DNA of 64,000 bases from Naegleria gruberi (Eukaryota), in NCBI GenBank assembly GCA_000004985.1, contig GG738869.1, one strand, 5' to 3'. Position numbers and translations under genes: made by a program. Positions 6,924 through 58,399 of the stretch are shown here, one piece after another (the first letter of the stretch is position 1; each line of letters starts with the position of its first letter). Below the pieces are notes generated by a model. It did not search any database. It was not told the DNA's origin and worked only from the letters and a program-made list of their open reading frames with translations.

Positions 6924-8887
6924 ATCAAATCAAGTGGTAATAGAGTACACAGAGCTGGCATTAAACGAATTGCAATAGCACACAAGCGTACATTCCTGGA
7001 TAAATTATTATCTAAAAACTTGTAAACTTTTGGGTTTTTCATCAAAGCTCGCTCAATAAAATTCATATCTTTTTTCAAATAATCAGCATATTCAAAATTC
7101 TTCTTACTAAATGAGAGAGACTGCAGTATTATAGCTTCATTGTTTCTGATAATATCTGGTTGAGTTTCTAACCAATCACGTTTGATTATTAAATGATTCA
7201 AAATATCTGATTCAAAAATAAAAGGTGGAGGGTTTTCCCACAAAGAAATATCCAATCCCACAGTGGTACGTTCTACCTGTCGTTTTGAAAGGATATCTTT
7301 CACGAACCACTTGCTATTCAAATTCTGTTGTGGAATAGTGTTCTTAATTGTACCAGGAGTAAGAAAATCCTTCATACAACACATGACCATGAGAATATCT
7401 TTGTCTTTCTTCAATCTATCAGATGCAAATTCAAATGCATAGGGGTTTAGAGACGTGGCTTTCAGAACAATGTCCTTGTCATTTCGTAATTCTTCAGAAG
7501 CAAACTGAAGAGCAAGTGGACTAAACTCCATTGCTTTAGAAACCAATTCTTTGTCTGATCTCAGAGTTGGAGAGGCAAACTTGAGTGTATCATGATATAT
7601 TTCCAAAGCTATTTCAATAATTTGCTTATTATTATTGAAATGTTTAACTAATTTTGCATCTCTAATTAAAACTCTTCTCAATAACTTTCGATCGTATACT
7701 AAGCCATTATCGGAACCAATAAAATCAATTACTTTTGGATTCTTAAGAATAGACAAGTAACAAACAAGTTGATTATTTTTCAACTGATTTGAAATGTATC
7801 TGAATGAGCTAGCATTATTTTGAATGGCAGAAAATACTACGTTCACATCATTTCTGTAAGAGTATTGCAAATACTTGAGAAGATTTCCATGTTCAGAAAC
7901 CATACCAATAATTTCCTTTTTGCTTGCTTCCTTCCTTAAATAGTAAACTGCTCTCACTAAATTAATTTCCTTCTTTTGTAAATATTTAATATCCTCCCTG
8001 ATTTCGTTTGCAAAATTATTTCTTAAATTAATATCATAAGCCATCATCCATTCACTCAAATACTTCAGTATTTCATATTCATCAGCATTAGTTGATTTGT
8101 GCAGACCAACCAAATTTCTAATACTGACCCCAAGTGCATACACATCAGAGGCCAATGAATAACGCGTATGAATGAGCTCGTATCTTGCTTCATTTGAAAT
8201 TTCAGGCGCTAAAAAACCATCAGTTTTACCAGTTACTGGTTTTTGGTTAACAATTGAATCATCTTGTGTCTTGAATGAGTATCCAAAATCTGCTACTTTT
8301 ACATGAATGAATTCGTTATCTAATTCTTTCACTAAAATATTTCCCAACTTGATATCTCCATGAACCATTTTATGGATATCACAAATGAAAATCAGTGCAT
8401 TCATAACCTGAAATAAAATTTGTACAGCTAGTACATTTCCAACAACATGACTCCTTTTTAAATCTATCAAGGAACCATGTTCAGCATATTCCATTTCTAG
8501 ACAAGGAATATTTCTCAATGTTCTATATTCAATTGTTCTAATAACATTATCATGGTTTAGTCTGAGTGCATGATTGGCTTCTATTGAACCAAGTTCTGAT
8601 CGAATTAAATTTATCTTCCACACAGTGCTCTTGTCATTTCTTGTAAATTTATAAATTGCACCTTGTCCTCCTTTTCCCAATACTTTCACTACAACTCCTT
8701 TATCAATAAAATGCAACAACTTGTCAATTTCTTCTTGTGGTATTTGTTCTGTTTTCTGTTGGAAATCTTCTGCAAAAAGAATACTTTCGGAATCGTTAAA
8801 ACGTTGCTCCTTTGGATTGTTTGTGAATTGTGAGGTTGTGCATTGACTAGCGGTATTCTTTGATAGCTCTTTTCTCTTTTTTACCAT
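6887..8887 (-). CDS. Ser/Thr protein kinase domain followed by DUF4116-like repeats
   Basis: 666-aa ORF. It has a glycine loop (LGKGGQGAIYKF), a catalytic loop (HGDIKLGNILV), DFG (VADFGYS) and APE (FLAPE). The C-terminal repeats read KFASPTLRSDKELVSKA / QFASEELRNDKDIVLKA / EFASDRLKKDKDILM. Confidence 0.8.
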   Translation of the reverse strand: MVKKRKELSKNTASQCTTSQFTNNPKEQRFNDSESILFAEDFQQKTEQIPQEEIDKLLHFIDKGVVVKVLGKGGQGAIYKFTRNDKSTVWKINLIRSELGSIEANHALRLNHDNVIRTIEYRTLRNIPCLEMEYAEHGSLIDLKRSHVVGNVLAVQILFQVMNALIFICDIHKMVHGDIKLGNILVKELDNEFIHVKVADFGYSFKTQDDSIVNQKPVTGKTDGFLAPEISNEARYELIHTRYSLASDVYALGVSIRNLVGLHKSTNADEYEILKYLSEWMMAYDINLRNNFANEIREDIKYLQKKEINLVRAVYYLRKEASKKEIIGMVSEHGNLLKYLQYSYRNDVNVVFSAIQNNASSFRYISNQLKNNQLVCYLSILKNPKVIDFIGSDNGLVYDRKLLRRVLIRDAKLVKHFNNNKQIIEIALEIYHDTLKFASPTLRSDKELVSKAMEFSPLALQFASEELRNDKDIVLKATSLNPYAFEFASDRLKKDKDILMVMCCMKDFLTPGTIKNTIPQQNLNSKWFVKDILSKRQVERTTVGLDISLWENPPPFIFESDILNHLIIKRDWLETQPDIIRNNEAIILQSLSFSKKNFEYADYLKKDMNFIERALMKNPKVYKFLDNNLSRNVRLCAIAIRLMPALCTLLPLDLIWYQILKFLESL

Positions 8888-14315: not shown

Positions 14316-14589
14316 TTATGGAGCAATAAATACAAATACACACCATTAGTTCCATCCTTTAACATCACCAAGAAGTTTATAATTCTCAAAATGATTTTGA
14401 AATAATAGTTATGGAAATGTTTGATTGTTTCTGAAAATGGCAAGTTAGTTTTAAGACCAAATATATTTTTGAAATGCTGTGATTGCTGTGATTGATCCAT
14501 TGGCTGTTTATTACCCACCGCCTATCAATAGGAAATTTTGATTAGAAGAAATACAGAATGGCTAATAATTTAAATATTAAGGAAAAGGT

Positions 14590-14663
14590 TACAGCGAGCG
14601 GGGCTGGAACCCGCGACCTTAAGCGTGTTAGACTTACTATCTAACCAACTGATCTATCGCTGC
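14590..14663 (-). tRNA. tRNA-Val (anticodon AAC)
   Basis: The reverse complement is GCAGCGATAGATCAGTTGGTTAGATAGTAAGTCTAACACGCTTAAGGTCGCGGGTTCCAGCCCCGCTCGCTGTA. The anticodon arm TAAGT-CTAACAC-GCTTA gives anticodon AAC. T arm is GCGGG/TTCCAGC/CCCGC. The D-stem is weak (3 bp) and position 1:72 is a G:U pair. Confidence 0.7.
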
Positions 14664-15935
14664 ATACATATTTAATAATTTATTAAGAATGAATCAAGCA
14701 TATCAGTTTTGCCACTATCCTGTTCAATCGAGGAGAGTTATTTACCTTCACTTCAATAATATTATTATTATTTACTCATGATGCTGATGAATAAAAATTA
14801 TCCTACCACAACCCAATGCTTCTAATCACTCTTGTGTACATCTACATTAAATATTTTCCCTTCTTATTCAATATTCATCAAGATTATCAACAATTTCTAT
14901 CAATACATGAAGTTTCACCTTCTGCCCTTTGACTTTAAAAAATTTGACGAGTTGATTGTGTGAAAGATGATGAACGAAATATGATGCTTGAAAAAATAAT
15001 CAAAAACAAAAATTTATCATCAATTCATTACCAACAATTTTATTCTGTGATGATTATCATAATAGGTTCTTGACTAGATTTTAAATAACTTTATACACTA
15101 CTAGTAGGGATGAAATGGAATCTACTCATGTGATTTTTAGGGAATTTAATCAAAAGATGAGGATTTTGCAAGTCAATGATAAGAATCACAAAAACTATTT
15201 ACCGACTGATGACTCATAACCTCTTCAGATGTTGGTAGCTATCTATTCTACTCTATTGAAGTTGGTCCGAGCTTTTTGCTATCAACATAACAACATCAAA
15301 ATATTAATCTTCTCATTTACATCACCAATAACAACATGTAACCAACAACCATCCCAGGATAGCCTCTAATAATGGTCTACTAGCATCCCAGAGAGTTTCT
15401 ATTCTTTTTAGTAGTTGTTGGTGAAGTTAGAAATGTTTGAAGATTTTAACATCATTATTAGCAATCTACAACAACTAATTATTCTTTATGATTAATATAT
15501 ATTGTTATTAATGGTAAGGACAATAATTACCAACAAAACAATTATTAGGATAATGGAATATGCAAAACCATCCGTAATCATCATCAATTATCATTATTCT
15601 GTGGAGCTGAACAGTGTGTCCTTCGTGGAAGATATCTTCCGTTGATTCATCACAATTAAATATGAATCTTGTGGAAAACCTCCATTGACAATTTTTAACT
15701 TCTCATCATATTAATTGATACTATTAGAAGTCACAACTTGTTTTAGGTTCAAGTTTGTTGATAATTTACTGTGAGATAATACTAAGAGTTGTAGCCATAA
15801 ATAGTACAGTTGGTCAAATGAGCATTGTTTAAATTTCATGATTTTTGAGCGAATAACCAATTCTCTCAAATATTACTCAAAAGAAAAAAGGTGAATATTG
15901 AAATTGCACATTCTATTGTTTTTAATCTTTAAAAA

Positions 15936-25729: not shown

Positions 25730-28700
25730 TTAAGCAAATGGAGCCCAACAAACAACACCTAGAGTGGTAGTTGTAGCAGCAGCTGTAGTCCACCACTTGT
25801 TAGTTGGAGCAGTGTAAACATAGTTAGCATAAACAACAGGACCAGAGCTTGAAGTAGCAAGATAATCAGTGAAAGCAGCAGTTGAAGTACCATCATCCCA
25901 AGTACCAGCACCAGAAGTATATGTCATTCCGAGAGGGAAGGTAATTGATTCAGCAGCTGGTAATATTGTTTGAATGAAAGTCTTTTCAGCAGCACTTTGA
26001 ATCATTACGAGTTTGGCATCCGATCTCCAATACTTGCAAATATCAGACATTACACTCTTGGTGTAGCCTGAAACAAACTTGGTGTAAATATAACAACGAC
26101 CAAGAGTGGCACTACAAGCAGTCTTACGAGCTGCACTATTTTCAACATAGGCTGGTGGTTGTGGATTGTATGGAGCAATAACACTGGCTGGACCCTTAAT
26201 GGTACCAGTAGCATATTGTGAATCTCCGAAAACACCAAAGGAAATGGAATCTTCTGTTACATCACCTTCAACAGTCAATGAGTAGGTAAAGCTTGAACCC
26301 TTAGCAATTGTGTAGACTCCTGGAGCACTTTCAAAGGAGAAACTGTCCTTGTTGGTAATTGGTTCTACACCTAGATAGACAGGGAAGTATGGATTGTAAT
26401 TATAGAAGGCATCTTGATTATAACCAGAGGCCATAGCCAAAGAGAACTTCTTGACACCACTTGGAGCACTTGATGCAACAGCAACTGTGTAATTGAATTG
26501 AGATCTGACCCAATTGGTAGACAAAATATTCTTGATAACAGATGTAGTCTTTCCCTTATAAGTGACAGTCATACCACTGTTTGCAAGTGGAACCAAAGTC
26601 TTGGTTTGGGAAGATGTGACTGTGTTACATGAGTTATCTACAACCAATTGGTAGACATTGGCAAGATTATTCCAATCGACATAGAGTGGATTGTTGGTAT
26701 CATAGTTCATTCTTTGAATTTGAACTTTACCCAAAGCACTTGTCAAACCAACACCAATACCAATAGCTAATTGTCTCCAATTCCAAATACCAGTACCAGC
26801 ATACTTGCTAACTTCAGCATTTGTGGAAACACCAGGAGACCAGGAATTAAGATCTGCTGATCTCAAAGTAGCTTCAGAACATGGATTACATCTACTACGA
26901 GAATCATTCCAAAGGCAGTTTGAGCAGTTCATTCCAGGGAATCTGTTTGATTTACAATAATTTGGAACAGAACCATATCTGAGAGGGTTGGCAGAGAAGG
27001 AGCTAGTACATCCACTACAACTACAAGGTTCTGTGGATTCACCGTCAGTTACGTGAATAATCATCTTGTTTACGATACTCTTTCTACCATAGCTTACCAT
27101 TTGGTCAATAGCAGCATTAATACCAGCAATTGAACCAGTTCCTGACTTTAATTGGGAAGCAGAGCTAATCTTGGACAAGACAACATCAACACTAGTACCA
27201 CTGTTAACTTGGAGGTGAGTAGTAATGCTTGAGGCAAACTGAATGATACCAATGTTTGTTCCAGTTGGTGAGATGTTGGAACCGAATCCCCTAGTAACGT
27301 TACCCATAAAGCTCTTCATCTTGATCCAATTTTCATCAGAAATAGAACCACTACCATCGAGGACAAAGATAATGTCCATATCAAGAGAACAAGTACAACT
27401 GGTGTATTGAACTGTTACAGTAGCACTTGATGAAGTACCATCTTGATCAGAAACAATAGTATATTCGAATTGGATAGAATCACAACTGTTGGCAACTGGT
27501 TTCACTCTAATAACTTGACTATTAGCAGGATCGTTTGGATTCAAAATAGTTGGAGTACCACTGGCACAATATCCAGTTGGACATGAGATACTAGCAAACT
27601 TGAAAGTACCACCAAGAGAATCATAATCGTTCGACAACAAGGTACTAACAGAAATGTCAACTTGGGCATTATACTTGGTAGAAACTACGTCATTGACAGC
27701 GATTGGAGGAGAAGCAAGAGGAGTAATAGTAATATTTGCAGAAACAGTAACTGGAGCATCAACATCACTATCGCTAACACCAACAATGAACCAACAAGAT
27801 GAACCAACAAAGGTTGTTTGTCTGAGGAAGCTAATCTTATTGGAGACAACAGAGATTGAAGAAACCAGAGTAGAAGTACAGGTACCTGTGTTTGTAATTG
27901 AAGTAAGCTTTAACTTGTCAGCAGTGTCAGCATCATAAGCATTAGAAACAGCCAAATAGTCAATAGTTTGTGCAACGTTGGTAGCTCTGCTTACAGAGTA
28001 AATATGGTTATAACTTGGAGCAACTGGAGCAGTATTTGGTTGATTTACGATAATCTTACAAGAAACTGTTTGACCAGCAGTATTAGAATAAGAATAAGTA
28101 GCATAACAGTTATCATTGATGCAGGAACGAGTACTATCTGCAGTATAAGTCCACTTGCTTGAAACCTTTGCAATTGTACCAACCTTAAGATTTGCAGTAG
28201 AGACAAGATTGATAGAGGCTGGTTCTGAGCCAGAAACCTTTACGAGAGCCAATCTCAAAGAATCTTCGAATTGATTAGCAGCATCATTCTTAGTGGCAGA
28301 AATGTAATAGTCGATACAGTTGAGAGCTGAACCAACAATGTTGATTGTATAAATGTAAGATGTTGTGAGTTGACCGTCTGTGAGGTAAACGTAGAATTGT
28401 TGGGTACCAATGAAAGAATTTGCATAAGTAAACTTGACTGATCCGTCAGTGTTCAAAACTACAGATGTACCAGAATTTTGATTTGGCAAGAGAGCAACTG
28501 AGGCAACAGTGACAGAATCACCATCAGCATCACTAGCACCAACCAAGAGATTGTTCAAGATTGTTGTTGGATTTGAGTAATTTCTAGTAACATTGGCAGT
28601 CTTGGAAGTACCTTGTGGTGGAGTATTGGTAATTGTAACAGAAACTTGTCCTGAAGTACTGAGTGGACCATCAGTACAAGAATAAGAGAAGGAATCAGAG

Positions 28701-31700
28701 ACAGTGTAAGCAGATCCATCACTTGGTGTGTTGGTGTAGGTGATAGAGGTAGATGGTTGATATGTAAAACTACCCAAAGAAGAATCAGTAACAACAACAC
28801 TTCCCAATGAACCTTGAGTAACACCAGAAAATGTGAGAGGATCACTGTTTGGATCAGAACACTTTGAAAGAATATTAGTGAATGAGGCAACATTTCTCCA
28901 CAAAACAGTAGCTGAAGTTGATTGAGCAGATGGAGCATCATTTGTATAAGTAATAGTTACAGTAACAAAGCTTGAAGTAGTAACTGAATCACTAATAGCA
29001 TACTTGAAAGTATCAACACCAGCTCCAAGAGCAGAATTATCCTTGTAGGTAACACTCTTCTTATCAGCACTTAATGTGAGAGAGGCAGATCTAGTAGATG
29101 AAACACTATCAATACTGCTAATGTAAATATCATCACCATTGGTATCGACATCATTAGCAAGTAAATTGAGAACAAGAGTCTTATTTCTCCAGTGTGTTGA
29201 GTAAGTATCAGCAACAGCAACTGGAGCAGTGTTAGTGAGTGCAATAGAGACAGTTTGGGTGACAGTTTGAGCGCCATCTGTAATCTTGAATTGGAATGAG
29301 GTAGAAAGAACTTGATTAGCAGGAGGAACAAACTTTACAACACCACTACTGACAGCAGTGAGAGTACCAACAGCTGGTTGAGAATAGTATGACACAGAGA
29401 GACTATCACCATCAGCATCCCTGGCATCAGCTAGCAAATTAATATTGAAACCAGATTGGACATTTCTCCAATGATTACTAAATGTTTGATCGCTTGATGT
29501 TGGAGCATAATTTTGGAGATTAATAGTTACAGTTTGAGTTGCTGAGCTATCAAGACCATCTGAAACAGAATAAGTGAAAGTTTGTTGAACCAAGTTGCCA
29601 GTTGGGTTGACAAAAGTAAAGGTCTTCTTATCACCTGAAAGAGTGAGTGTGCCAACAGATGGAGTTGTGAAAGCATTAACAGTCAATTTGGTAGTATCAG
29701 CCGAGTCACTATCGGTTGGTTTAAGAGCATCAGTTCTATCAATAATTGGAATTGTAATAGTATAGTTACTAAAGTGGACAGTAAGAGGAATATTATAAGC
29801 AACAGGAATACTATTACTAATTACAATTGGGAATGTAGCACTAGAGGCAGTCCAACCGTCAGTGAAAGCTACTGTGAATGTATCAGTTCCCTTCCATGGA
29901 GAAGTTAACTTGTAGGTAACTGTATTGGATGACCCAAGAACAACGGTACCTTGATTACCATTCTTTGTGATGGAAGTAACATTAACAGCATCATTTTCAG
30001 CGTCAGTGAATCTGGAATTCAAATTAATTGTTGCTGTAGTGTCATAAACAGCTCTCCAATGATAATTGAAAGCTTGAGTATCAACGGATGGAACAGTGTT
30101 GATAACAGTGACTGAAATGGTTCCAGAAACTGTTTCCTTGCCATCAGATACAATGAAAGTAACAGTATCAACCTTTCCTACAAATCCACTAGTTGGAGTG
30201 TAAATGATATTACCACCACTCTTAACAATAGTACCTTGAACAGCAGGAATGGTACTAAAGCTTGAAATAGTGAGAGAATCACCATTACTATCACTTGAAC
30301 CACCAATAACATTGAAAGTAACACCAGACTTGGCAACCTTCCAAACAACGCTTGAAGTATAACTAGTGGTTGTTGGTTTACTATTGGTTACAAGAATGAA
30401 AATCTTACCAGTGGTTGTGGTAACACCATCAGAGATAACATATGTCAAAGTATCATTACCAAGAGGAGCAGTATTTGGATAGTAAACAATCTTATTGCCA
30501 CTAATGATTGGAGCTTGTGTTGCCAAAGAACCATAAACTGAACTAATAGTGAGTGGATCACTTTCAGCATCAACATCATTGGCCAAGGCATCAATAACAA
30601 TAGAAGCAGTATTCCAGTGAACAGAGAGATAATCACTGTTAGCAACTGGAGCAGTATTAGTAACTTTGAGTGTAACAGTATTACTAACATCACCATTTGA
30701 GGCACCATCAGTAACTACATAACGGAAAGAGGTTGTACCAGTAAAGGTAGAACCTGGTGCAGAAATAGTTACAGAAGTGGTATCCTTTCTTTGAACAGTT
30801 CCTGATGCAAGTTCATTAACAACAGACTTTAAGGAGATTGGATCAGAGTTTGGATCAGCATCAGCTGTTGCCAAGGCAAGGACATTCAAATCAAAGCTTC
30901 TATAATTTCTCCAAGTAATTTCATATGATTTAGCAGAAACAACAGGAGGAGTATTAGTAACTTGAACAGTGAAAGAAGCAGTAGCATTCTTCAATCCATC
31001 AGATACAATATATGTTGCTTGAACTGTACCAATTGTTGAGGTTGGTGTGTAGGTGGCAACATTTGAAGCAATTGAGAGAGAACCAACTGGAACACTACCA
31101 GGATAGGTTGTCAAATAACCACTATCGGCACTATCCGCATCAGCAATTAATGGACCAAGATTGACAGTAGCAGTATTTCTCCAGTGAACTGGAGTAGAAG
31201 CAGCTTGAGCAGTTGGAGCGTTATCATAGACGTTCATATAGAAAGTGAGAGAACTGGTACCTGCACCATTATTATATGAAAATACGAATTTTTCTTCACC
31301 AGTAAAACCAACAGCAGGTTTGTAATTGAAATTCTTCAAGTCATCCAAAACATTTACAGTACCTCCCTTGTTTGGAGCAACGTTCAAAATCTTGTTCAAT
31401 TCAAGAGTACCGTATGAAGTGATATTATCAAAAGCATAGAAATCTTGTCCTACCAAACTCTTTCTCCAGTGAACATCAAAGTATTTTTCTTCAGCAGATG
31501 GAACAACACTTCTAATATCTACAGTTACAGTAGCAACAGCTGACTTAATCAAACCGTCATAAATTTGATAAGTAAAAGTATCAATACCAGTTTGAGTAAC
31601 CAAAGCAGGAGATGGGAAGTACTTGATCTTCTTATTGGAACTATCAATGGTAACAGCACCAGAACCAAATCTTGTTGATGCACCAACATTACTGACAACC

Positions 31701-34700
31701 AAATATGCAGAATCATCAGTATCAGAATCAGTTGCCAAACTAACAGCCTCAATAGTAATACCTGTTTGAACATTAGCACCATAGTATGTAACTGAAATAT
31801 CAGCAGCAGTTGGTGGGTTGTTGTATGAGGTTGTAGTTAAGGTCTTTGTAGAGCTATCCAAACCATCGGTCAATGTAGCAGTACAAACAGCAGTTCCAGT
31901 AAAGCTTGAAGAAGCAAAATTGACAACTTTAACAGCTCCAGATGCAACTGTAGAACAACCAGTACCTGTAACAGAGAGAGTGAGACTGTCACCATCACCA
32001 TCGGTTGGAGTATTGTAAACATTATAAGTAACACCACTAGCAGCAGTTCTCCAGTGAACAGTTTGAACTTGAGCATCAATGTTTGGTACATTGTTATTTG
32101 TAACTGTAACAAAAACAGTGGCAGTATTTGAGTTCAAAGCACCATCAGTAGCCTTATAAGTGAATTGATTAACACCAGTAGTAGGAGAAGAACCAAGGGT
32201 ATATCTAATAAGATTATTATTCTTTTCAATGGTACCTTTGGCAGGTTGAGTGAAAGTATCAACTGAGAGGGTATCAGAATCAGCATCAACATCATTAGCC
32301 AAAACATTAATGTCGATATTAGTAGATTTCCAGTGAACAGAGATGGTATCATTACTTGCAACAGGAGCATTATCCTTAATAGTTACATAAACAGTAGATG
32401 TACCTTGCGAAATACCATCAGTAATAGTGTAGGTGAATGAATCAGAACCAACAAATCCTTTAGTTGGAGTATAGATAGCTTTGCCGTTAGATTTTAAGGT
32501 TGAACCAGAGGTAGCTGAGGAAACAGATTGAAGACTGATAGAATCAGAATCAGCATCTGTGCATCCAGACAAAACATCAATAGTAATACCAGTTGACCAT
32601 ACGGACCAGTGAGCTTCAATATTCTTAACTGTTGCTGTTGGAGCAGTATTCTTAACAGAGACAACAAATGTACCTGTCTTACTAACCCAACCATCAGTGA
32701 ATTTAGCAGTGAAAGAGGAATCACCCAAAACTGGGCTATCTGGAAGAGTCCAATTAACCTTATCGGAAGAAATACTTGGAGTACCATAAGTAGTAGCACC
32801 AGTAGTCAAACTGAATGTAATAGCATCATTATCAGCATCAGTTACTGCAGATAAAACATCAATCAAGGTAGATTTTTGAGTCCAATGAATATTGGTTGGG
32901 AAGACTGTAACAACAGGATCGTTATTCAAAATGTTAATAGTCCAGTCAACTGATTTAGTCAACAAACCATCAGTGAAAGTAATAGTAACAATACTTGCAC
33001 CAGTATAACCTTGTTGACCAACAAAAGTAACCATATTACCAGAGAAAGTTGCAGAGCCACCAACATTAACAGAAACTGTCTTGACAGTTACAGTGTCTTC
33101 ATTGTCAGCGTCATTAGCACCACACATTACGACAGCATCACGAGTATAACCAGAAACAACTACGTCAAAGTGCTTGTTTTCAGTAACAGCATTAGCAGTT
33201 GGTGCTTGATCATAGACATTAAGATTGACTTGAACTTGAGAAGTACTAGCACCATCAGTAATGGTTACATTGAATGTATCAGCGCCCAAATAATTGTTTT
33301 GTTGAGTGTATTTGACATTTGGAATTGTAGAAGCATCACCGTTATTGATAGCAACTGAACCCTTAGAAGGAGTTGAAGTTGAAAGAATTGAGAGAGAATC
33401 TCCATCAGCATCGAGCGGTTGAGGAGTAGAGAACATATCAATAGTGGTACCACCAGTTTTTTGAGTAGACCAGTGAATATTCTTATTAATGACTTGATCT
33501 TGAGGAACATTATTATTGGTAACAATAAGTGTAACAGATGAAGAAGCACTCTTGGTAACATCATCGGTAGCAATATAGGTAATTTCTTGCGTACCAACAG
33601 ATGCAGCAACAGGAGAAAAGACAATAGCCTTTCTTTGAGCATCAATAGAAACTGATCCCTTGAAATCAGCAGCTTTGCTAACAGTATCAACAAAGAGAGC
33701 ATCATTGTTTGGATCCTTATCGTTTGCCAAAACATTCAATTGGTTATCACTTGACTTCCAGTGGAAAGTATAAGAGTCAGCAACTGGAAGAGGAGCATCA
33801 TTTCTAAGAGTGACAACAACATTGGCAACAGTTTCCTTTCCATAGTCAGAAACAGTGTATGTGAAAGTTGTTTCACCAGAATACTTTTCAGATGACTTGG
33901 ATGTGAAAACAAGAGCATCAGTACCATCAGCAAGTTGAGTACGAGTAACAACACCCTTTGATGGTTGAGTGAAGCTAGCAATATGAAGTGGGTCAGAATC
34001 AGCATCAACATCATTTGACAATACATTAATAGTAACTGAAGCATCATTCCAGTGAACAGAAGCAGTATCATCAACAGGAGCTGGAGCAGCATTAGTAACT
34101 TGCACAGTGACTGTTCCTTGATTTGATTCATCTAAGCCATCAGTAGTAGTGTAAGTAAATGTAGTGGTACCAGTGAAACCATTGTTTGGTTTAAAGAGAA
34201 CCTTTTTACCACCTTCAAAACTGGAAACTTGACCAGCAGTTGGTTGAGTCAATGTCTTGATAACCAAAGTATCATAATCACCTGGATTGATATCTTGGTC
34301 ATTATTCAAAACTTCAATAACAACACTTCTATTCCAAGATACAGACACAGCATCATTGTTAGCAATAGGAGCATCATTGACAACATTAACAGTGACAGTA
34401 GCATAATTAGAGAGAGCACCTTCATCATCAACAATAGAATAAGTAAAGGTGTCAACATATGTTTGGTTGAGAGCAGCATAGGTAACAAATCTGTTATTTG
34501 GTGAAATGTCAACAGTAATACCTTGAGTAGAAACAGTTGCAAGATCATATTGAATAGCATCACTATTTGGATCATAATCATTACTGATCAATTCAAATTT
34601 ACCAACTAAACCCTTAGAAACTTTAACAATATCGTCAACAGCAACAGGAGCGATATTTTTAACACCAACAATCAAATAACCAGTTACAGTGAAAATGCCT

Positions 34701-36285
34701 GTAGTTGATCCATCCTTGTTAGAATTTTTAACCTTGTATGGAGCAACATCGGTACCAGTGAAATCAGCTGGAGGAGTATAAGTCACATTCTTATCATCAA
34801 TCTTCTTGATCTTACCACCATTTTCAGTGGACAATTCATCAAAATCGAGCAAGAGATAATCATTGGAAGCACTATAATCATTAGCAACAACATCAACAGT
34901 GATTGGAACATTCTTATCGCACAAAACAGTATCATTAACAGCAACTGGAGCGACAGGAATAACATTAATAGTAACAGTACTTGTTACTGTATCAATATCA
35001 TCAGTAATTCTAAGCTTGAAAGATTCACTATAAATTACACCATCTTCAGGAGTGTAAACCATGGTATAACTATTCTTTTTAACATTGTAAAAATCTTGGG
35101 TTGGATAATTGACTTGAGTAATTGTGGATTGTTCCAAGAATTGGAAGGTACCACGAGTTGGCTTGGTCAACAAGGAAACGGTAACAGTATCTAACATATC
35201 AGCATCAGTGTATGTCAAATCCAATTGGTTATCCTTTGAATTCTTTGGAACATTGAGAATTCTATCAGCATTATTTGGTGGAGTATTGACAACTTTCAAG
35301 AAAACATAACTGCTTGAAGTAGTTGGACCATCAGTAATTGTATATTCAAAGGCATCAGTCAAAGCTTCAACCTTTGCAGGTGGAATGTAACTGAGATAGG
35401 TAGCATCTGAGGAAGTGATAACAGTACCAGCACTACCAGTACCAGATGTTGATGCAACAATAGTAATATTATCACCATTAATATCATAATCATTTTCCAT
35501 AACTCTGAGGATAGTCTTGGCATTCTTTGGAACAGTGTAAGTATCTGGATCAGCAACAGGTGGATCATTTTCAACATTAATAGTAATGAGAGCACTAACA
35601 ATAGCATTACCATCAGAAACGGTATAGTTGAATTGATCTTGAGCATTGAAACCATATTTTGGAGTGTAGTATACATATTTAGTGTCAAAAGTAACAACAG
35701 CTTCTGGAACTTGAGAAGCTGTAATACCAACAACAGTCAATTCGTCATTATCTGGATCAGTAATGAAAGCACCGTTATCAGTAACATAAGCAAAAATGTC
35801 AATACTGTTCTTTTTGCTATTCTTACTAACAGTGAGTGTAATATCAACCAATTCAGGTGGACGATTCAAAACTTCTACATGAACATTTGCTGAAGAAATC
35901 ATATAACCATTAGTTACATAATATTGGAAGGTTTCATTTCCAGCAAAAGAGCCTTTTGAAGTATAAACTAGTGTCTTACCATCCTTCAAAGAAACTGTAC
36001 CAGAAGTAGGTTGAGTAACGTTAACGAGAGTTAAATTCAATGATTTTGGATCAGCATCGTTAAGAAGTGGATATATTGTGATTGGGTAACGTTTGTAGAC
36101 TTGAATATAATCCTATTAGTTGTGGGTATTCAGAAAGTTGACATTTAGACATGCATGAATATAATGATGATAAACACAACAAATTCGAAATACTATGAAT
36201 TACTTACGTCTTTTGCGTCAGGAGCAGAGACTCCAGCAGAGACTGTAACCATGACAATAGTAACAACAACACTCGCAACAACCAT
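25730..36285 (-). CDS. Giant secreted adhesin-like protein (about 3,480 aa): signal peptide, about 25-30 tandem cadherin-like/Ig-like (VCBS-type) repeats, vWA domain, C-type lectin-like domain
   Basis: Exon 1 is 36218-36285 (MVVASVVVTIVMVTVSAGVSAPDAKD, hydrophobic signal). A 105-nt intron at 36113-36217 follows (GTAAGT...AATAG). Exon 2 is 25730-36112, a 10.4-kb uninterrupted ORF ending at TAA. About 100-aa repeats carry PVAxxD / VLxNDxDxxxDxL / TYTxxDG motifs. The vWA reads DIIFVLDGSGSIS...IHVTDGEST (MIDAS DxSxS). The C-terminal region has CTLD-like Cys/Trp spacing (CSATLGRCYIYTK...WDDG...VVCWAPFA). Confidence 0.8.
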
Positions 36286-37616
36286 TGCAGAAATGATAGC
36301 ACCAACCTGACAAGGCTTTAGTTTATGTTTTAATAATCAAAACTTACAATTGTTTGAGTAATTGTGTTTCCTTTCTATATAGTCAAAGATGATGAAGAAA
36401 CATAAAGGTCAACAATCAGCATGGACCAAAAATTACGTGAGCGCATTAATCAAAACAAGTTAGAATGTCAAATCACCGAGGGATAATACTACAACAACAA
36501 CATACCAACAAGGATACATTCACGCCAAAGCCTGAAGTACCAACAGTAGAGTTGGTGAAAATAACTTGGCCACCAGCAGGCATCTTGTTTGTTTTTTTTA
36601 AGAGAATGTTTTTTATAATGGGTGAGGATGGCACACATGAAATACCAATACAAAGCCTTTCATCACACGCCAATCTGTATCGAAAGAGAGGAGGATATTG
36701 AATATCGAAATGAGCGTTCTAGTGCTCTGTTGTTGGCCTTCTTTGAAAGTTTGTGTGTTTGTAATTAGCTTCATTGCCGAATAAATTTTATGAATTTGTC
36801 GCACAACTTGACAAAAAAACAGACATGGTGACATTTTGATAATTAATGTAGTAGAGTGATGGGTAACATCATACCATTTCAATACAGTCTAATCTTTAAT
36901 AGACAACATGACAAGTAGAATATATTCGAATATTTTATTGAGGAACGAATTGGGGATTCGAGTCATCTAGATTTGAAATATAGATGGTGTTTACTTTATC
37001 TTGATTTATTACTTACTCTACATCTTCTACTACAATTTATGTTGGCAACAATACACAATACACGAATCATGCCATAATATTTTCATGACTCGAAGGCATT
37101 GAGGTTAGAGCGGAAGAGTTTTAAGTGTAAGGAGTCTGGATCTGGTGATGGTTTGTAGAATAGTTGGTTGTTGTGAATTTTGCCTATTTTAATAATTACA
37201 TAAAAGGAAATAGGCAAACTTCCGTTTTACATTCAAAGCAGTTTATTCCAAAGAGGTTCTTTATCAGAAACGGAATGGTAGAAATTTTAGGTCAGTATTC
37301 AAAATTTTGTAACATTCAAATTTCATTTATTTGCACCATCTACAGTTTAGTTTAGGGTTAGGCAACGAATGACGGAGAGTGAGGGAGATCCTGTCTCAAT
37401 GATAAATTTGTTACCTGTGAATGAGAACCTAGGTTTTGAAAGTACCTTACTACTTTCATTCAGTTCAGCAGGGAAGGAATAGGATAAGTTGGACTGTTCA
37501 TTTTCAACAACTTGTGATAGGCATTTGCATTAAATGTGTCAATAACACTCAATGTACCTCCAACAATTACAATCATTACTTCAGCAGAGTTGGAATTTGC
37601 CAATTTGTAACAAAAA

Positions 37617-38075
37617 TCATAATTTCCTTTGTTTGTGAATTGAAAGTTGTATAAACATCTGCAGTATTATTGATTGGTGTAGAGATTGTTGAAACATTAA
37701 CAAGCTGATCTCACACAACAATTCGAAAGCTCTCCAAGATGCTTTACGAACACCAACATTGGTGATTAATCCATAGGTTCCTGAGAAGACTTTAGATTGT
37801 TGACCTCCCTCTTCGAAAATATCAGAAACACACCAAAAACTGAAAATGTCAACCAAGCCATGAATGTATGGTGCTGGAAAGGCTGTATCTTGATAAAAAT
37901 TTGATCCTCCTCCATTTTCTAATCCAGCATTCCATTCAGTGTAATAAAGTGGATAATTCCCAGCTTCCGTTCTGGTTTTTCTATTGGCATTTCACATAAA
38001 ATCTCTCTTAACGGGGAAGATATCAGTTGGATATTCATGTGTTGATATAAAATCAAGTGGAATATTTGCTTTTTT
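37617..38075 (-). pseudogene. Glycoside hydrolase family 39-like (alpha-L-iduronidase / beta-xylosidase family) remnant with in-frame stops
   Basis: Minus-strand frame reads ...IPLDFISTHEYPTDIFPVKRDFM*NANRKTRTEAGNYPLYYTEWNAGLENGGGSNFYQDTAFPAPYIHGLVDIFSFWCVSDIFEEGGQQSKVFSGTYGL... with GH39 hallmarks (DFISTHxY, nucleophile motif YTEWN, FS[FY]W..SD[IV]FEE, GxxGL). In-frame TGA codons lie at 37984-37986 and 38073-38075. Flanking regions are fragmented across frames. Confidence 0.45.
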
Positions 38076-38408
38076 GTGAATTCATTATTTGAGTCTGGTG
38101 ACAATATTGATCTAATATTCAAAATAAATACCACAGCTCCAAATAATATAATATCCACTCAAACTTGCAACTCTTTCATCAAATCCATGCTCATTAATTG
38201 CTTGAACTCGTTAATGAGAAGTAACAAACAATCCATCTCCCCTATTCCAAGAGCTGTTGACAGAGACCAGTTTTTTGAGTTTAAAGTGGTGTCTGAACAA
38301 CAACTTGATTAATAATTTAAAGGACATTGACAGTTTGTTTTTATTAAGATATACAGAGAGAAGGTAGAGAGAAGAACAGTGAAAAGGGAAATGAGAAATT
38401 CAAAAAGT

Positions 38409-39783
38409 TTACAAAATCATGCATTTGCCACCAGTCTTCTTTGCTGATTTGTTATCTTGCTTGAATCTTTCAGGATGCAAAACAACAGTGATGGCCAAAT
38501 TGAAACATTCCTTCAAACCAACTTGTGTCTTGGCCGAACATTCACAGTAAGAAATACAGTTGACTTCCTTTGACATTTGTTCACCCATTTCCTTAGTTAT
38601 TGGTGTAAGACCTTGTTCTTTCAATTTCTTTAAAGTGGCATCGTGTTCTCTCATGTCAACCTTCAAACCACACAAAATAATTGGAACAGCTGGACAGTGC
38701 TTACGCAATTCTGGAATCCAACGATCCTTAATGTTAGTGAATGATGATGGTTGAACAACTGAGAAACAAGCAATGAAAATTTCTGTATCTGGATAAGACA
38801 ATGGTCTCAAACGACTATTTTCAATTGTTCATCATCATTAAAATTATTAAATCAAATGGATAGAGTTAATTCACAACATTTAATATTAATATAGTAGAGA
38901 GATGGTGTAGTGTGTTAATAGTGAAGAAGAGGTGTCAAACAAATTATTATTAGAATCAAGTATGAAACTATTCGAATATTATTATTCTAAAACTTACTCA
39001 TAACTGTAAAATGTTGAAGGTTGTTAATATAATGAATAGAAATATAATACATACTCTTCTTGACCAGCTGTATCCCACAAACCTAATGACACTGTATGAT
39101 TTTCATACATGACATTGGCACAATAGTTATCAAAAACAGTTGGAACATATTCTAAAGTGGTGTTATTAGAAAGTCGTCATATTTTAAAAGCATGGTAATT
39201 AAAAGGATATCAGAAATTGATAGTATCATAACAAGATGAAGTGTAGGACTATGCATAAACAAGAAATTGTTTGTTAGAAACTTACCAGTTGGGAAGGAAT
39301 CAGTACTGTAACTAATTAACATGGAAGTTTTACCGACAGCACCATCACCTATAGTGGAAAATAATTATTTGTTATTAGAATGGTTGTTGTTGTTGTTTTG
39401 ATGGTTAGTCATAAGGTTTAGTTGTTTAAAGTGGAAAGTGGTTGATGGTGGTTTGATGTTTAGTTTACATTAATCATGATTGTGTTTTAGAGGTGAAAGA
39501 ATATTCGTTATGAATGTGAAAGATTATCGCGAAAGTCATGGATAGGGTTGAAATTGTTGTTGTTGTGGTTAGAAAGTGTAGAAATTTAACCAGAAAGTGT
39601 ACGAAACAATATTCGAAAAGGATCAAGTAAGAGAAAGCATCAAGTAATAATGATGGAAAGAAGAAGAAAATTTGTTATCATAATCAGATGGTAGAATTAA
39701 AAAATTCGAAACAAAACGGAATAATTAGAAACTAGACTAAACTTTTACATACCAACAACTACACATTTAATATTAGTATCCAT
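38409..39783 (-). CDS. Rac-like Rho-family small GTPase with CaaX box, 5 exons including a 6-nt micro-exon
   Basis: Exons are 39753-39783 ([11 protein letters not shown]), 39286-39348, 39055-39151, 38998-39003 (TTATGA) and 38409-38814. Introns are 404, 134, 51 and 183 nt with GTATGT/GTAAGT 5' sites. The spliced product reads [79 protein letters not shown]...KCMIL. The 6-nt exon supplies the conserved DYD. Confidence 0.75.
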
Positions 39784-40136
39784 TCTTTATATACAAAATC
39801 TATAGACAAAACTTTAATGATGGATTTGTTTCTATGTACGTACTCTCGAGAAAAAATCTAAGAGGGGTAGATTCGGTTTATTTTTTCTAGCTTGATTGCT
39901 GCCAAAAGTCAGAAGGTAACTGAGAACTAAAGGAATGATGTGTGATGGCCAGACGTGCGAACATTGAACTATAAAGTAATGGAAAAAAAGAAGGTATTCT
40001 ATTGAGGAAGGAACTGTGAAATGAAGAATATTACAAATTTCCATGAAGGCGTACAAATCCCTCATAAATGGGTGCGTCAACGAAAAACATCAGTCTGATT
40101 CCTCAATATCCATTAAGGTTCTCAAACTAATGTGCT

Positions 40137-40207
40137 CGTCTCGTGGTGTAATGGTAGCATAGTGGACTTTGAATCCATTGACGGAGGTTCGATTCCTCCC
40201 GAGACGG
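40137..40207 (+). tRNA. tRNA-Gln (anticodon TTG)
   Basis: CGTCTCG-TG-GTGT-AATGGTA-GCAT-A-GTGGA-CTTTGAA-TCCAT-TGAC-GGAGG-TTCGATT-CCTCC-CGAGACG-G. Acceptor stem is a perfect 7 bp. T-loop is the canonical TTCGATT. It closely resembles eukaryotic cytoplasmic tRNA-Gln. Confidence 0.9.
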
Positions 40208-40451
40208 TAACGTGGCGAGCCATTGAATTTTATTTTGAATAAATTTGGAATATTGAAGAGAAACCTTATTTGAAACTTTTTTATTTGAAAACATTAGAAG
40301 AAGGAAGCAGTTTGTTTGTTAAAACAATAACAAATTTCGAGATTAAAAATCTTCAAATATATTATGAATAATCTCCAATTGCTTAAAAACATCTCTTTCT
40401 TAATATTTTGACCTGTCAACCATCAATGATTGGCAACTATAAGAAAAAAAA

Positions 40452-41554: not shown

Positions 41555-41679
41555 TGTGGAGGAATTGATTTCGAATAAAGTTTGCTAAGAAAAAAAGATT
41601 GAAAGCTAAATTGAGATGTTGATTTGCTCTTGCAAATGCTGAATATCCAATGATCGAGGCTAAGAACAAAAAATCAGAT

Positions 41680-41752
41680 ACCGACAATGGGGCTCGAACC
41701 CACGACCCCAGGATTAGAAGTCCTGTGCTCTATCCAACTGAGCTATGACGGC
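41680..41752 (-). tRNA. tRNA-Arg (anticodon TCT)
   Basis: The reverse complement is GCCGTCA-TA-GCTC-AGTTGGATA-GAGC-A-CAGGA-CTTCTAA-TCCTG-GGGTC-GTGGG-TTCGAGC-CCCAT-TGTCGGT-A. D, anticodon and T arms are good. The acceptor stem has one U:U mismatch (5:68) and G1:U72, so it may be weakly functional or degenerate. Confidence 0.65.
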
Positions 41753-42892: not shown

Positions 42893-44641
42893 GTGGAGTT
42901 TGTTAGGAGTTGTTTAAAAAAAATGTCTTCAAGAGTTTGCACAGCTTTTGGTCGACTTATTTCCACGCCATCATCACCATCATCACTATCATCACGATCA
43001 TCAAGAAGGAAAATTAATTCATCCTTCTTCATGTTATTATTAAATTATTTCCTTCTCATAATTTCTCTCGTTTTCTTCATCACATCAACCTCCAATTTAA
43101 TACTTGCCAAATCATCATCATCAATAATTACATCATCATCATCGGTGCAATTTAGTAGTAGTAGAATTAAAAATCATGATGTGAAGGATCCACCAAATTT
43201 TAATATTTGTCAATCAGAGGTTTCGAATCAGGTCAAGGATATGCTTTCTAATTTTCCAGCAACTTTTGGTATTCAAGTAATGGTTAATCAAACCATTGAG
43301 TTGTTTTCTTATAATCCAGATCCATTTCTTCAACCTGCTTCTAATAACAAATTATTGACAACTATTGCTGCATTGAATCATTTGGGAAGTAAATTTCGTT
43401 TCTCCACTGATTTCTTCTATGATTATAAGAATAGAAGAGTTGTTGTGAGACCAAAGGGAGATCCAACATTAACATTTGAGCAATTGCAAAAATCATTAAT
43501 GAATGTTTTGGAAAAGGTCACTTCAATGAATCCTCATGAAATTGTTGTGGATGCTAGTTTTTTCAATCCAATTCCATTTACAAATGGTGGAGATGATGAG
43601 GAATTTCCAGATTCATGGGAATGGGGAAATTTACAATATTCATTTAGTTCAGTACCAAGTGCCTTATCTTTGGAACATAATACTTTAACATTTACTGTTA
43701 AAGGTGGAGAGGTTGCTGGTCAAGGATTGAGTATTGTTTTGGATGAACCATTTCAATCATTTGCAAAGGATTTCTTTGAATTTGATACTAGTTTGAGTAG
43801 AACTTTGGATTGTTCAAATGCTAATATTATCAGTAAGGAAAGTGTCACCTCTTATTATAAACCTTTAGATAATAAGATTATTGTTAGAGGTCAATTGTGT
43901 GCAAAGAAGGAATCCAAGCAAACATTGACTGTTTTGGATACTTATGGATTTTTCTTACAAGCAGTTTCAAGTGCTAGCGCCTCTTCAAATGGTCCAAAAT
44001 CTGTTAAAATTGATTATTTGAGTGAGGAGGAACGTTCCTCCATGTTTGAATTCAAAGAGGAATGCGTCTACTCTGATAATATTCTCACAGTTATGAATAC
44101 TACACTTCAAGAGAGTGATAACATGTATGCAGAATTATTCTTGAGACAATTGGGAACTTTCATTAAGGCAAATAGTAGTTTGGACGTTTTTCCATCCATC
44201 ACCACAAGAGGAATTCAAGTTGTTAAGGATATTTTGACAAGTCAATTCAACTTGTCACCATTCACATTCTTCCAAAATGATGGATCTGGACTTTCTCGTC
44301 ACAATCTCATTTCTCCTCGTTCTCTAGTCGATGCATTGAGTGCAATCTATTACAAGGGAGCAGGTGGAGTCAGTGGTGAAACATTTGTCTCCTTATTACC
44401 TCTCGGAGGAAGGAGTGGAACTCTCAGGAATAGATTTGTTGATTTCCCAGGTATTGTGAGTGCTAAAACTGGAAGCTTGGATGGAGTTAGTTCTTTGAGT
44501 GGATATATTAGAAATGCCAATTATAGAGATCCAATTGTTTTTTCAATTATTGTTAATCAGTGTCCACTCTCTGCCAAGGAAATGCATCAAATTATTGATT
44601 CCATTGTTACCTTGTTTGCATTCATGAATCCAAAATGCTAA
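42893..44641 (+). CDS. D-alanyl-D-alanine carboxypeptidase/endopeptidase (PBP4, peptidase S13) homologue, intronless, with Ser-rich N-terminal extension and hydrophobic anchor
   Basis: All three PBP4 active-site motifs are present with PBP4-specific context: SxxK (QPASNNKLLTTIAALNHLGSKFRFST, cf. E. coli DacB PASTQKVITALAAL), S-x-N (DGSGLSRHNLISPRSLVDAL) and KTG (AKTGSLDGVSSLSGYI). The N-terminus MSSRVCTAFGRLISTPSSPSSLSSRSSRRK plus FFMLLLNYFLLIISLVFFITS is eukaryote-style. Codon usage and AT content match neighbouring intron-containing genes. Confidence 0.8.
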   Translation: MEFVRSCLKKMSSRVCTAFGRLISTPSSPSSLSSRSSRRKINSSFFMLLLNYFLLIISLVFFITSTSNLILAKSSSSIITSSSSVQFSSSRIKNHDVKDPPNFNICQSEVSNQVKDMLSNFPATFGIQVMVNQTIELFSYNPDPFLQPASNNKLLTTIAALNHLGSKFRFSTDFFYDYKNRRVVVRPKGDPTLTFEQLQKSLMNVLEKVTSMNPHEIVVDASFFNPIPFTNGGDDEEFPDSWEWGNLQYSFSSVPSALSLEHNTLTFTVKGGEVAGQGLSIVLDEPFQSFAKDFFEFDTSLSRTLDCSNANIISKESVTSYYKPLDNKIIVRGQLCAKKESKQTLTVLDTYGFFLQAVSSASASSNGPKSVKIDYLSEEERSSMFEFKEECVYSDNILTVMNTTLQESDNMYAELFLRQLGTFIKANSSLDVFPSITTRGIQVVKDILTSQFNLSPFTFFQNDGSGLSRHNLISPRSLVDALSAIYYKGAGGVSGETFVSLLPLGGRSGTLRNRFVDFPGIVSAKTGSLDGVSSLSGYIRNANYRDPIVFSIIVNQCPLSAKEMHQIIDSIVTLFAFMNPKC

Positions 44642-58200: not shown

Positions 58201-58399
58201 AGAAATTACAACAACAAACCAAGAAAAAAGTACAACCTTTATTAACGTTAAAGTGAATGAATCTCCAAAATTGGGAGAGTTTGCAGTTTCTCCAAAAACT
58301 GGTTATGTTTTAGAAACTCAATTTAACTTGACAGCAAATAACTGGTATGAAAATGAACCTGTGACTTATCGATTGTGTATCGATATGTTGGAGATTTAA
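55290..58399 (+). CDS. Secreted protein with multiple PPC (pre-peptidase C-terminal, bacterial-type) domains; at least 3 exons
   Basis: Exon 1 is 55290-55695 (signal peptide MKELLLATIAICLFCCSLVFAQ, then a PPC-like domain with GDCDMWIS). Intron is 55696-55734 (39 nt, GTAAGT..TTAG). Exon 2 is 55735-56068 (TINVDGIYGDPDLYVTGSNGDSW..., classic G-D-x-D-L-Y-V). A candidate 35-nt intron sits at 56069-56103 (weak GTCAAT..CAG). Exon 3 is 56104-58399 with further PPC-like units (GETKLYVRKGAIPTSSEFDYVISGEGTYTV, NAGKVNINLNMLKAGDEADIFYSY, KELEGKVDVFVNQNNYT). Confidence 0.6.

Follow-up and report, generated by a model that had tools for sequence, protein, structure and literature searches.

A four-exon gene of Naegleria gruberi encoding a giant tandem-95 repeat protein with a predicted N-terminal membrane anchor and a vWA/C-type lectin-like head

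In a 64,000-nucleotide (nt) stretch of the Naegleria gruberi genome (contig GG738869.1 of GenBank assembly GCA_000004985.1; hereafter the window) we identified a gene of four exons on the minus strand, extending from position 36583 to position 25730, whose product of about 3,528 amino acids (aa) is dominated by 30 diverged cadherin-like repeats of the tandem-95 type. Downstream of the repeats the protein carries a von Willebrand factor type A (vWA) domain with a metal-ion-dependent adhesion site (MIDAS) and ends in a divergent C-type lectin-like domain (CTLD). The gene has orthologues in Willaertia magna and Naegleria lovaniensis as well as a paralogue in N. gruberi, and its public model lacks about a third of the protein. 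The explanation that we favour is that the product is a single-pass surface protein in which an N-terminally anchored stalk would present a metal-dependent adhesive head, a eukaryotic variant of the giant repeat adhesins of bacteria. To this explanation as a whole we assign a probability of about 60%. The coordinates of the features are collected in Table 1.

When counted from an internal TTG codon, the long open reading frame (ORF) at 25730..36040 of the minus strand comprises 3,436 aa. Upstream of this TTG, the frame remains open as far as the acceptor AG at 36114-36113, and the main coding exon, exon 4, consists of 3,460 codons and a stop. Over its entire length it is colinear with the orthologues of W. 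magna (KAL9644294.1, 3,559 aa) and N. lovaniensis (XP_044542534.1, 3,429 aa; UniRef name "Tandem-95 repeat protein"). Exon 4 is preceded by three small exons. The start codon of exon 1 is located at 36583-36581, with the sequence TATAAAA at 36617-36611, and both the Met-Pro start and the Ser-Leu residues of the N-terminal motif described below are common to the paralogue and the Willaertia orthologue. Micro-exon 2 lies between an intron of 131 nt and one of 41 nt, the latter (intron 2, 36307-36347, minus strand) having the borders GTAAGT...GTCAG, and it encodes the invariant K27 and Q33 together with the nearly invariant T30 of the same motif. The N-terminus of the spliced product, MPAGGQVIFTNSTVGTSGFGVNVSLLKGNTITQTIVGAIISAMVV..., is identical to that of the GenBank protein XP_002676992.1.

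The initial annotation of this DNA, made by a model from the letters and a list of ORFs, had presented the main coding block as one uninterrupted exon. This was borne out, and that description is better than the public model, which drops 1,162 residues. The small exons turned out differently. The supposed 68-nt exon, placed 105 nt upstream, measures 99 nt in reality (78 nt if counted from the ATG at 36285 proposed at the time), the intron behind it has 95 nt, and it is not a lone upstream exon but the third of four (Table 1). The Leu-rich ORFs ascribed to the antisense strand are 11 overlapping ORFs lying on the sense strand in shifted frames; the five plus-strand ORFs are not Leu-rich. In addition, the picture of a genome peppered with introns does not hold for this region, since at least five neighbouring single ORFs on the 747-kb scaffold (NAEGRDRAFT_67752, _67751, _67746, _58086 and _67736) are identical, letter for letter, to annotated full-length N. 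gruberi proteins, which means that the genome is locally intron-poor. On the basis of the window itself and of the genome paper (Fritz-Laylin and colleagues, 2010), which reportedly gives about 0.7 introns per gene, we regard the genome as a whole as intron-poor. Our literature search found no paper giving the intron density of N. gruberi.

The gene is represented in public databases as NAEGRDRAFT_79811 (XP_002676992.1 / EFC44248.1 / D2VFU1), a "predicted protein" of 2,366 aa, which we located by an exhaustive HMMER search using the C-terminal 722 aa as the query. The idea that the giant gene was unannotated was dropped once this record turned up. In a separate homologue search with a slice of the repeats, no listed match was longer than 1,281 aa, suggesting that the database searched holds no giant proteins, and for this reason the absence of the gene from it is uninformative about annotation. 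A literature search on the accession numbers of the gene retrieved nothing. Comparison of the record with the four-exon translation (3,528 aa) revealed that the two differ by six internal segments of 193, 48, 29, 161, 601 and 130 aa, which are missing from the public protein. The excluded segments, 1,162 aa in total, are all in frame, free of stops and bordered by GT..AG-compatible sequences. Their borders lie, to within a few nt, at 34534/33956, 33316/33173, 32842/32756, 32446/31964, 31363/29561 and 29251/28862 of the window.

An iterated hidden Markov model (HMM) built from the protein itself delimited 30 repeat units of 90-110 aa with a period of about 95 aa, in agreement with the earlier estimate of about 25-30 cadherin-like repeats. 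In the Pfam scan of the long ORF, Big_9 reached 719 bits in 23 stretches, Cadherin_4 456 bits and Cadherin_5 445 bits, and a 733-aa slice matched the NCBIfam model NF012211 (tandem-95) with 187.7 bits, where the cut-off is 90. Neither the Pfam nor the NCBIfam scan gave a match to VCBS models, and the VCBS label used in the initial annotation is replaced here by tandem-95; some metagenome sources apply the VCBS name loosely to relatives of this protein. The metazoan Cadherin family PF00028 was not matched in the Pfam scan, and a sequence search of the PDB with a slice of the repeats was also negative. The structure of repeats 13-14 was predicted by AlphaFold2 (AF2), with the protein's own 27 di-repeats as the alignment, to be all-beta at a mean predicted local distance difference test (pLDDT) score of 94.9. 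When this two-repeat model was submitted to Foldseek, the top matches (E 8e-9 to 1e-6) were cadherin-like modules of bacterial proteins (a GH107 fucanase and SraP CDHL) and pairs of extracellular cadherin (EC) domains from cadherins and protocadherins. Across the 30 repeats we counted 13 D-x-D-x-D and 11 ND-x-D motifs; several repeats have none.

The vWA domain was recognized by Pfam (PF00092) with E 7e-21 in the long ORF; its scores in the long ORF and as an isolated segment were 75.6-80.1 bits (threshold 23.8). Its MIDAS is complete (DGSGS, SGTGS, VTDG), and the residues are invariant in four homologues, in accordance with what had been claimed for it earlier. Among solved structures, the domain comes closest to collagen VI, integrin I domains and the apicomplexan proteins MIC2/TRAP. 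The Pfam match spans only positions 1-117 of the 174 in the profile and ends at a Cys-rich insert. This insert contains eight Cys residues in N. gruberi, six of them invariant across the four homologues, and its pattern P-C-x-C-x-x-C ... C-x-W ... C-x-P-C is invariant in N. gruberi and in the homologues designated P0001, P0002 and P0003; the insert is also present in more distant family members. Between the vWA domain and the CTLD lies a middle domain that gave no significant match in Pfam and in which AF2 predicts strands with low confidence.

The C-terminal domain of the N. gruberi protein scored 20.6 bits with Pfam Lectin_C (PF00059), below the gathering cut-off of 22.6, whereas its N. lovaniensis counterpart scored 40.6 bits and passed it. 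Three of five family members match Lectin_C at E<=0.01 (best E 8e-11). Profiles gave a consistent picture: with a 2-sequence profile against the PDB the top 39 matches were all CTLDs (best E 1.1e-5), and with a 5-sequence family profile there were 85 matches at E<=0.001, of which the 60 listed were all CTLD proteins, with single-domain E values down to 3e-10. The CTLD of the initial annotation is upheld by these matches; of the domain models named there, the cadherin-like ones and vWA found their matches, VCBS did not, and Lectin_C stayed just under its cut-off in N. gruberi. In the alignment, the cysteines C0, C0', C1 and C4 are present, the C2-C3 disulfide is absent, and FPLGM stands in the place of WIGL. 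Neither an EPN/QPD nor a WND motif occurs in the N. gruberi domain; N. lovaniensis has GNPNN and WDD in their place. Judging by these sequence features, the domain is best described as a divergent CTLD and, because EPN/QPD, WND and the C2-C3 disulfide are lacking, should be named a CTLD and not a lectin.

At its other end the protein carries the motif N-x-S-L-[LIVM]-K-x-x-T-x-x-Q-x-x-x-G followed by a hydrophobic helix, an arrangement that is conserved in 14 family members. The motif is common to the paralogue, the Willaertia orthologue and ten other relatives, and each of the three small exons contributes to its invariant residues. A Kyte-Doolittle scan of the 3,528-aa product detected a single window above 1.6, covering residues 30-66 in the region of exon 3, and no hydrophobic tail at the C-terminus. 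The 35 residues before the helix include one basic and no acidic residue. The hydrophobic core begins at about residue 35 of the four-exon product, beyond the approximately 25 residues from the initiator Met that are expected for a cleaved signal peptide, and in the relatives the helix is followed by VG[FY]xPP with no consistent small-x-small cleavage site. No family was matched in a Pfam scan of the N-terminal module, and a profile search with it matched a single 111-aa fragment; the conserved anchor module is previously undescribed. Since this is the only hydrophobic segment, the module in front of it is conserved and the residues behind it do not resemble a signal-peptidase site, the most likely interpretation is a type II signal anchor that is not cleaved and keeps the N-terminus inside the cell. 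It had been read at first as a signal-peptide exon, a view disfavoured by its position behind a conserved 35-residue segment that is encoded by two more exons and is seen in the GenBank model, the paralogue, Willaertia and ten relatives.

The heterolobosean orthologues and the paralogue have the same architecture from the N-terminal motif to the CTLD and are colinear with the N. gruberi protein repeat by repeat, with 38-54% identity. The paralogue, NAEGRDRAFT_72752, is located on another scaffold, and its model is shorter (2,816 aa) and includes an Ice_binding (PF11999) segment. This beta-helix match, at residues ~1550-1710 in the middle of the repeat array (37.8 bits), could reflect an insertion or an artefact of the gene model. 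In N. lovaniensis, the model begins within the transmembrane (TM) helix (MVTVGAGY...) and is devoid of a counterpart of repeat 7; both differences are probably model errors that call for re-annotation. A further homologue of 3,445 aa is present as a single ORF on a metagenomic contig, beside genes for PARG, cullin and APC3. On a contig of the ENA metagenome ERZ929261, positions 2531-4801 encode a homologue with 51-54% identity, whose ORF has only 756 aa, begins inside the equivalent of repeat 29 and has no anchor; genes on the opposite strand lie immediately upstream, and the ORF may represent a truncated version of the gene, a pseudogene or a chimera of the assembly. The family members found, of which the HMMER search gave roughly 60, came from Naegleria, Willaertia and metagenome or Logan eukaryotes. 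The Naegleria pangenome study counts exactly two C-type lectin genes and two vWA genes in the core genome of the genus (PMC9928731). Two core genes of each kind would be consistent with the giant gene and its paralogue, to which they may correspond.

Three alternatives concern the gene itself. The public 2,366-aa model would be right if the six omitted segments were real introns that happen to be open, and their GT..AG-compatible borders and lengths in multiples of three agree with this. However, it would require 1,162 sense codons without a stop in DNA of ~38% GC, and one of the introns would have 1,803 nt as compared to 41-131 nt for the gene's own. Moreover, according to the self-HMM the omitted segments encode complete tandem-95 repeats, their identity to the aligned orthologues of Willaertia and N. 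lovaniensis is 38-51% (28-49% for the retained parts), and the lengths of these orthologues, 3,559 and 3,429 aa, fit the unspliced product. We consider real introns to be very improbable. Because the segments are in frame, stop-free, encode full repeats and align with two orthologues, we conclude that the six "introns" are gene-finder artefacts and that the real product has about 3,528 aa. The chance is smaller still that the gene has expanded recently or evolves in concert, with a copy number that the assembly would not report reliably, although the initial annotation had proposed repeat homogeneity and recent duplication or concerted evolution. Only the regular ~95-aa period and the shared motifs speak for it. 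The repeats are on average 25% identical in pairwise comparisons (27% between adjacent repeats, 43% at most), Tandem Repeats Finder reported no array with a period near 285 nt, and the longest DNA-level repeats have 135 nt with 60-73% identity. Since the repeats are diverged and form no tandem array in the DNA, the concern about their collapse in the assembly is removed. At the same time, for every one of the 30 repeats the best match in the Willaertia protein is found at the equivalent position, in monotonic order, with a mean identity of 43.6% and 73 bits as against 43 bits for the second-best repeat; in N. lovaniensis this applies to 28 of the 30 (~44% identity). As the repeats resemble their positional counterparts in Willaertia more than they do their own neighbours, the array is ancient and stable, and these comparisons show that it was already in place, repeat for repeat, before Naegleria and Willaertia diverged, which leaves no room for recent duplication or concerted evolution. 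It is likewise very hard to maintain that the locus represents bacterial DNA, be it a contaminant or a bacterial tandem-95 adhesin gene that was transferred horizontally in the very recent past. In the repeat-slice search bacterial proteins did come first (Vibrio harveyi, Thiodiazotropha and actinobacteria-like proteins; 30-34% identity), NF012211 is a bacterial annotation model, and a tandem-95 homologue of Vermamoeba has been interpreted as a bacterial acquisition (PMC7125106). Nevertheless, the gene contains three GT-AG introns and lies among eukaryotic neighbours on a 747-kb scaffold, its GC content at third codon positions (GC3, 0.233) is like that of the host, and its relative synonymous codon usage (RSCU) correlates with that of the neighbouring genes at 0.82, inside their own range. 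A pattern scan of 185,579 prokaryotic genomes returned only generic N-terminal halves of vWA domains (24-28% identity) and none of the Cys-rich insert, the middle domain or the CTLD. Together with the paralogue, the orthologues in Naegleria and Willaertia and the metagenomic homologue beside PARG, cullin and APC3 genes, the introns, codon usage and neighbours clearly identify it as a native eukaryotic gene. An ancient transfer of the repeat module alone is plausible and compatible with the explanation that we favour; a phylogeny of the repeats would not resolve the donor, because the identity between repeats and bacterial proteins (30-34%) is similar to that among the repeats themselves.

The remaining alternative concerns the fate of the product, which could be a secreted protein of the matrix, glycocalyx or cyst wall, with a signal peptide of unusually long n-region cleaved after VSA and the remainder serving as an extracellular scaffold. 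The sequence SAGVSA|PD resembles a -3/-1 cleavage site, there is neither a second TM segment nor a tail of the glycosylphosphatidylinositol (GPI) type, and secreted matrix proteins, e.g., collagen VI and matrilins, often contain vWA and CTLD modules. However, the 35 residues ahead of the helix are conserved in 14 relatives, with S, L, K, Q and G among the invariant positions, which is unexpected for a disposable signal peptide, and the relatives carry F, Y or P near the equivalent site (VGFNPP, VGYSPP), which disfavours cleavage by signal peptidase. We therefore hold secretion to be unlikely, while giving it far more weight than the alternatives discussed above.

In the architecture that we propose, a 35-residue cytoplasmic segment with the conserved juxtamembrane motif would be followed by the sole hydrophobic helix, which would serve as a type II signal anchor and stay uncleaved. 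The 30 diverged tandem-95 beta-sandwich domains would form a stalk on the extracellular side. Cadherin-type domains measure about 4-4.5 nm each, and on this scale the stalk would be roughly 120-135 nm long; it would probably be stiffened by Ca2+ at the acidic ND-x-D and D-x-D-x-D motifs. The membrane-distal head would comprise the MIDAS-bearing vWA domain with its family-specific Cys-rich insert, the beta-rich domain and the CTLD devoid of sugar- and Ca2+-binding motifs, and could bind ligands on the substrate, on prey bacteria or on other cells in a metal-ion-dependent manner. The extracellular character is in line with 28 N-x-S/T sequons and with the clustering of Cys residues in the head. 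The giant extracellular adhesion-type protein foreseen by the initial annotation, with ~30 cadherin-like repeats, a vWA domain and a CTLD, is supported, and the adhesive function is suggested by the architecture alone. Several observations weigh against the anchored stalk and adhesive head. Signal peptidase might cleave after VSA (residue 63), in which case the protein would be secreted and not anchored. The AF2 model of the 556-aa head, computed from a 4-sequence alignment, has a pLDDT of 39.9, too low to establish the folds of the C-terminal half of the vWA domain, the Cys-rich insert and the middle domain. The CTLD has no carbohydrate-binding motifs, and the N. gruberi copy falls below the Pfam cut-off. 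The 41-nt intron 2 is unusually short, and the conservation of the spliced protein motif is its sole support. Finally, only about one repeat in two has clear acidic motifs of the Ca2+ type. A broader reading, which we offer as tentative and as having the odds against it, would join these elements into an undescribed family of giant (~130 nm) type II membrane adhesins distributed across several protist lineages, in which a tandem-95 extender of bacterial type, taken over long ago from bacteria living as prey or symbionts, would have been fused to a eukaryotic vWA/CTLD head and a new conserved N-terminal anchor module, and which amoebae would use to capture bacteria or to grip surfaces.

The closest counterparts of the repeat region are the bacterial tandem-95/Big_9 giants (NF012211; PF17963, PF17803, PF17892). 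They belong to the same repeat family, with HMM scores well over the cut-offs, and likewise have a ~95-aa unit, ND-x-D-x-D and TYT-x-x-DG signatures and a cadherin-like beta-sandwich present in tens of copies that make up most of the protein. In contrast to them, the Naegleria gene has spliceosomal introns, a predicted N-terminal TM anchor with a family motif in place of the bacterial secretion and retention modules, and a head in which a vWA domain with a Cys-rich insert is joined to a CTLD; the scan of prokaryotic genomes did not turn up this combination. The RTX fibrillar adhesins secreted by the type I secretion system (T1SS), such as LapA, FrhA and MpIBP, follow a similar logic of anchor, Ig/cadherin-like extender and distal ligand-binding region. 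Some of them, e.g., LapA, contain a vWA domain. The Naegleria protein differs from these adhesins in having 0 GGxGxD nonapeptides, no T1SS signal and no retention module; its C-terminus is a CTLD, and its anchor would be a TM helix in a eukaryotic membrane. The likeness to this class of Gram-negative adhesins, which is the subject of a review (bioRxiv 10.1101/2025.09.30.679566), is best regarded as an analogy of design and not as membership. With metazoan cadherins and protocadherins the protein shares tandem beta-sandwiches with acidic inter-domain motifs, and the two-repeat model can be superposed on pairs of EC domains from cadherin-23, protocadherin-15 and desmocollin, with 13-20% identity to the EC domains. 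However, the protein has no PF00028 match and no catenin-binding tail, and its predicted topology is opposite, with the only TM segment at the N-terminus; it is not a cadherin. Among the vWA/I-domain adhesion proteins (integrin alpha I, collagen VI, matrilins, TRAP/MIC2), the similarity is greatest in the MIDAS-bearing N-terminal half of the vWA domain, whereas the Naegleria domain has the Cys-rich insert after the MIDAS aspartate and a C-terminal half too divergent for the Pfam model.

Table 1. Features of the giant gene and its predicted product (positions in the window)
Feature	Position	Strand	Remarks
Coding exon 1	36506..36583	-	aa 1-26, MPAGGQ...VNVSLL; GT donor after 36506
Coding micro-exon 2	36348..36374	-	27 nt, KGNTITQTI; GT..AG borders, phase 0
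Coding exon 3	36208..36306	-	99 nt, aa 36-68; predicted signal-anchor/TM helix; donor GTAAGT at 36207
Intron 3	36113..36207	-	95 nt, GTAAGT...TAG; stops in frame here; read directly from the sequence
Coding exon 4	25730..36112	-	10,383 nt, aa 69-3528 and stop 25732-25730; uninterrupted frame
Repeat 1	36112-35861 and end of exon 3	-	self-HMM
Repeats 2-30, tandem-95 (Big_9/Cadherin_4/Cadherin_5) cadherin-like beta-sandwich	27437..35860	-	self-HMM
vWA domain	26624..27382	-	Pfam VWA E 3e-22 on the isolated segment
MIDAS residues	DGSGS 27358-27344; T within 27145-27122; D within 27052-27032	-	D-x-S-x-S...T...D
Cys-rich insertion, 54 aa inside the vWA domain, right after the MIDAS aspartate	26870..27031	-	homologue alignment
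Middle domain, beta-rich, ~150 aa	26165..26623	-	conserved in homologues P0001 and P0002
C-type lectin-like domain, C-terminal ~130 residues	25733..26119	-	Pfam Lectin_C, family profiles

Several other features were observed in the window. Between the giant gene and the last exon of a Rho-type GTPase gene (38409-38810) there is a stretch of ~1.8 kb (36600-38400) without an ORF longer than 90 aa, which is unusually empty for such a gene-dense window and may represent either a promoter region or the remains of a gene. On the plus strand, an ORF at 42893-44641 with a hydrophobic N-terminus contains a full-length Peptidase_S13 domain (PBP4-type D-Ala-D-Ala carboxypeptidase, E 1.4e-57). The giant gene of this amoeba is thereby only 6.6 kb away from an ORF for a peptidoglycan enzyme of bacterial type. 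Adjacent ORFs at 55290-59724 of the same strand carry PPC-like beta-sandwich repeats, a REJ domain (E 1.7e-13) and a C-terminal TM segment, and this run probably represents one multi-exon polycystin-like surface receptor. At 5619-8887 (minus strand) a protein kinase is fused to six DUF4116 repeats, and the next ORF looks rich in DUF4116-type repeats by sequence, which suggests a locally duplicated repeat family. Genes for tRNAs are scattered among the protein genes: Val-AAC at 14587-14664 (minus), Gln-TTG at 40136-40208 (plus) and Arg-TCT at 41679-41752 (minus). A run of 4,024 N at 950-4973 marks a scaffold gap, across which ORF lists are meaningless.

What we describe is an ordinary-looking but real giant adhesin gene, and the added value lies in the corrected model, in an array that is demonstrably ancient and in an undescribed conserved anchor module. 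The public model of this core Naegleria surface protein is without a third of the protein, and proteomics, surface-antigen and comparative work on Naegleria, including relatives of the pathogen N. fowleri, would miss the omitted peptides. The 30 repeats, each held in place since before the Naegleria/Willaertia split, provide a counter-example to the fast turnover expected of long tandem-repeat genes, and the locus illustrates cleanly how a repeat module of bacterial type can be embedded in a long-lived eukaryotic gene. The broader reading given above, if true, would amount to a eukaryotic re-invention of the bacterial fibrillar adhesin. Heterolobosean adhesion and prey capture are poorly understood at the molecular level, and a conserved, probably anchored giant protein bearing a MIDAS offers a concrete candidate for testing.

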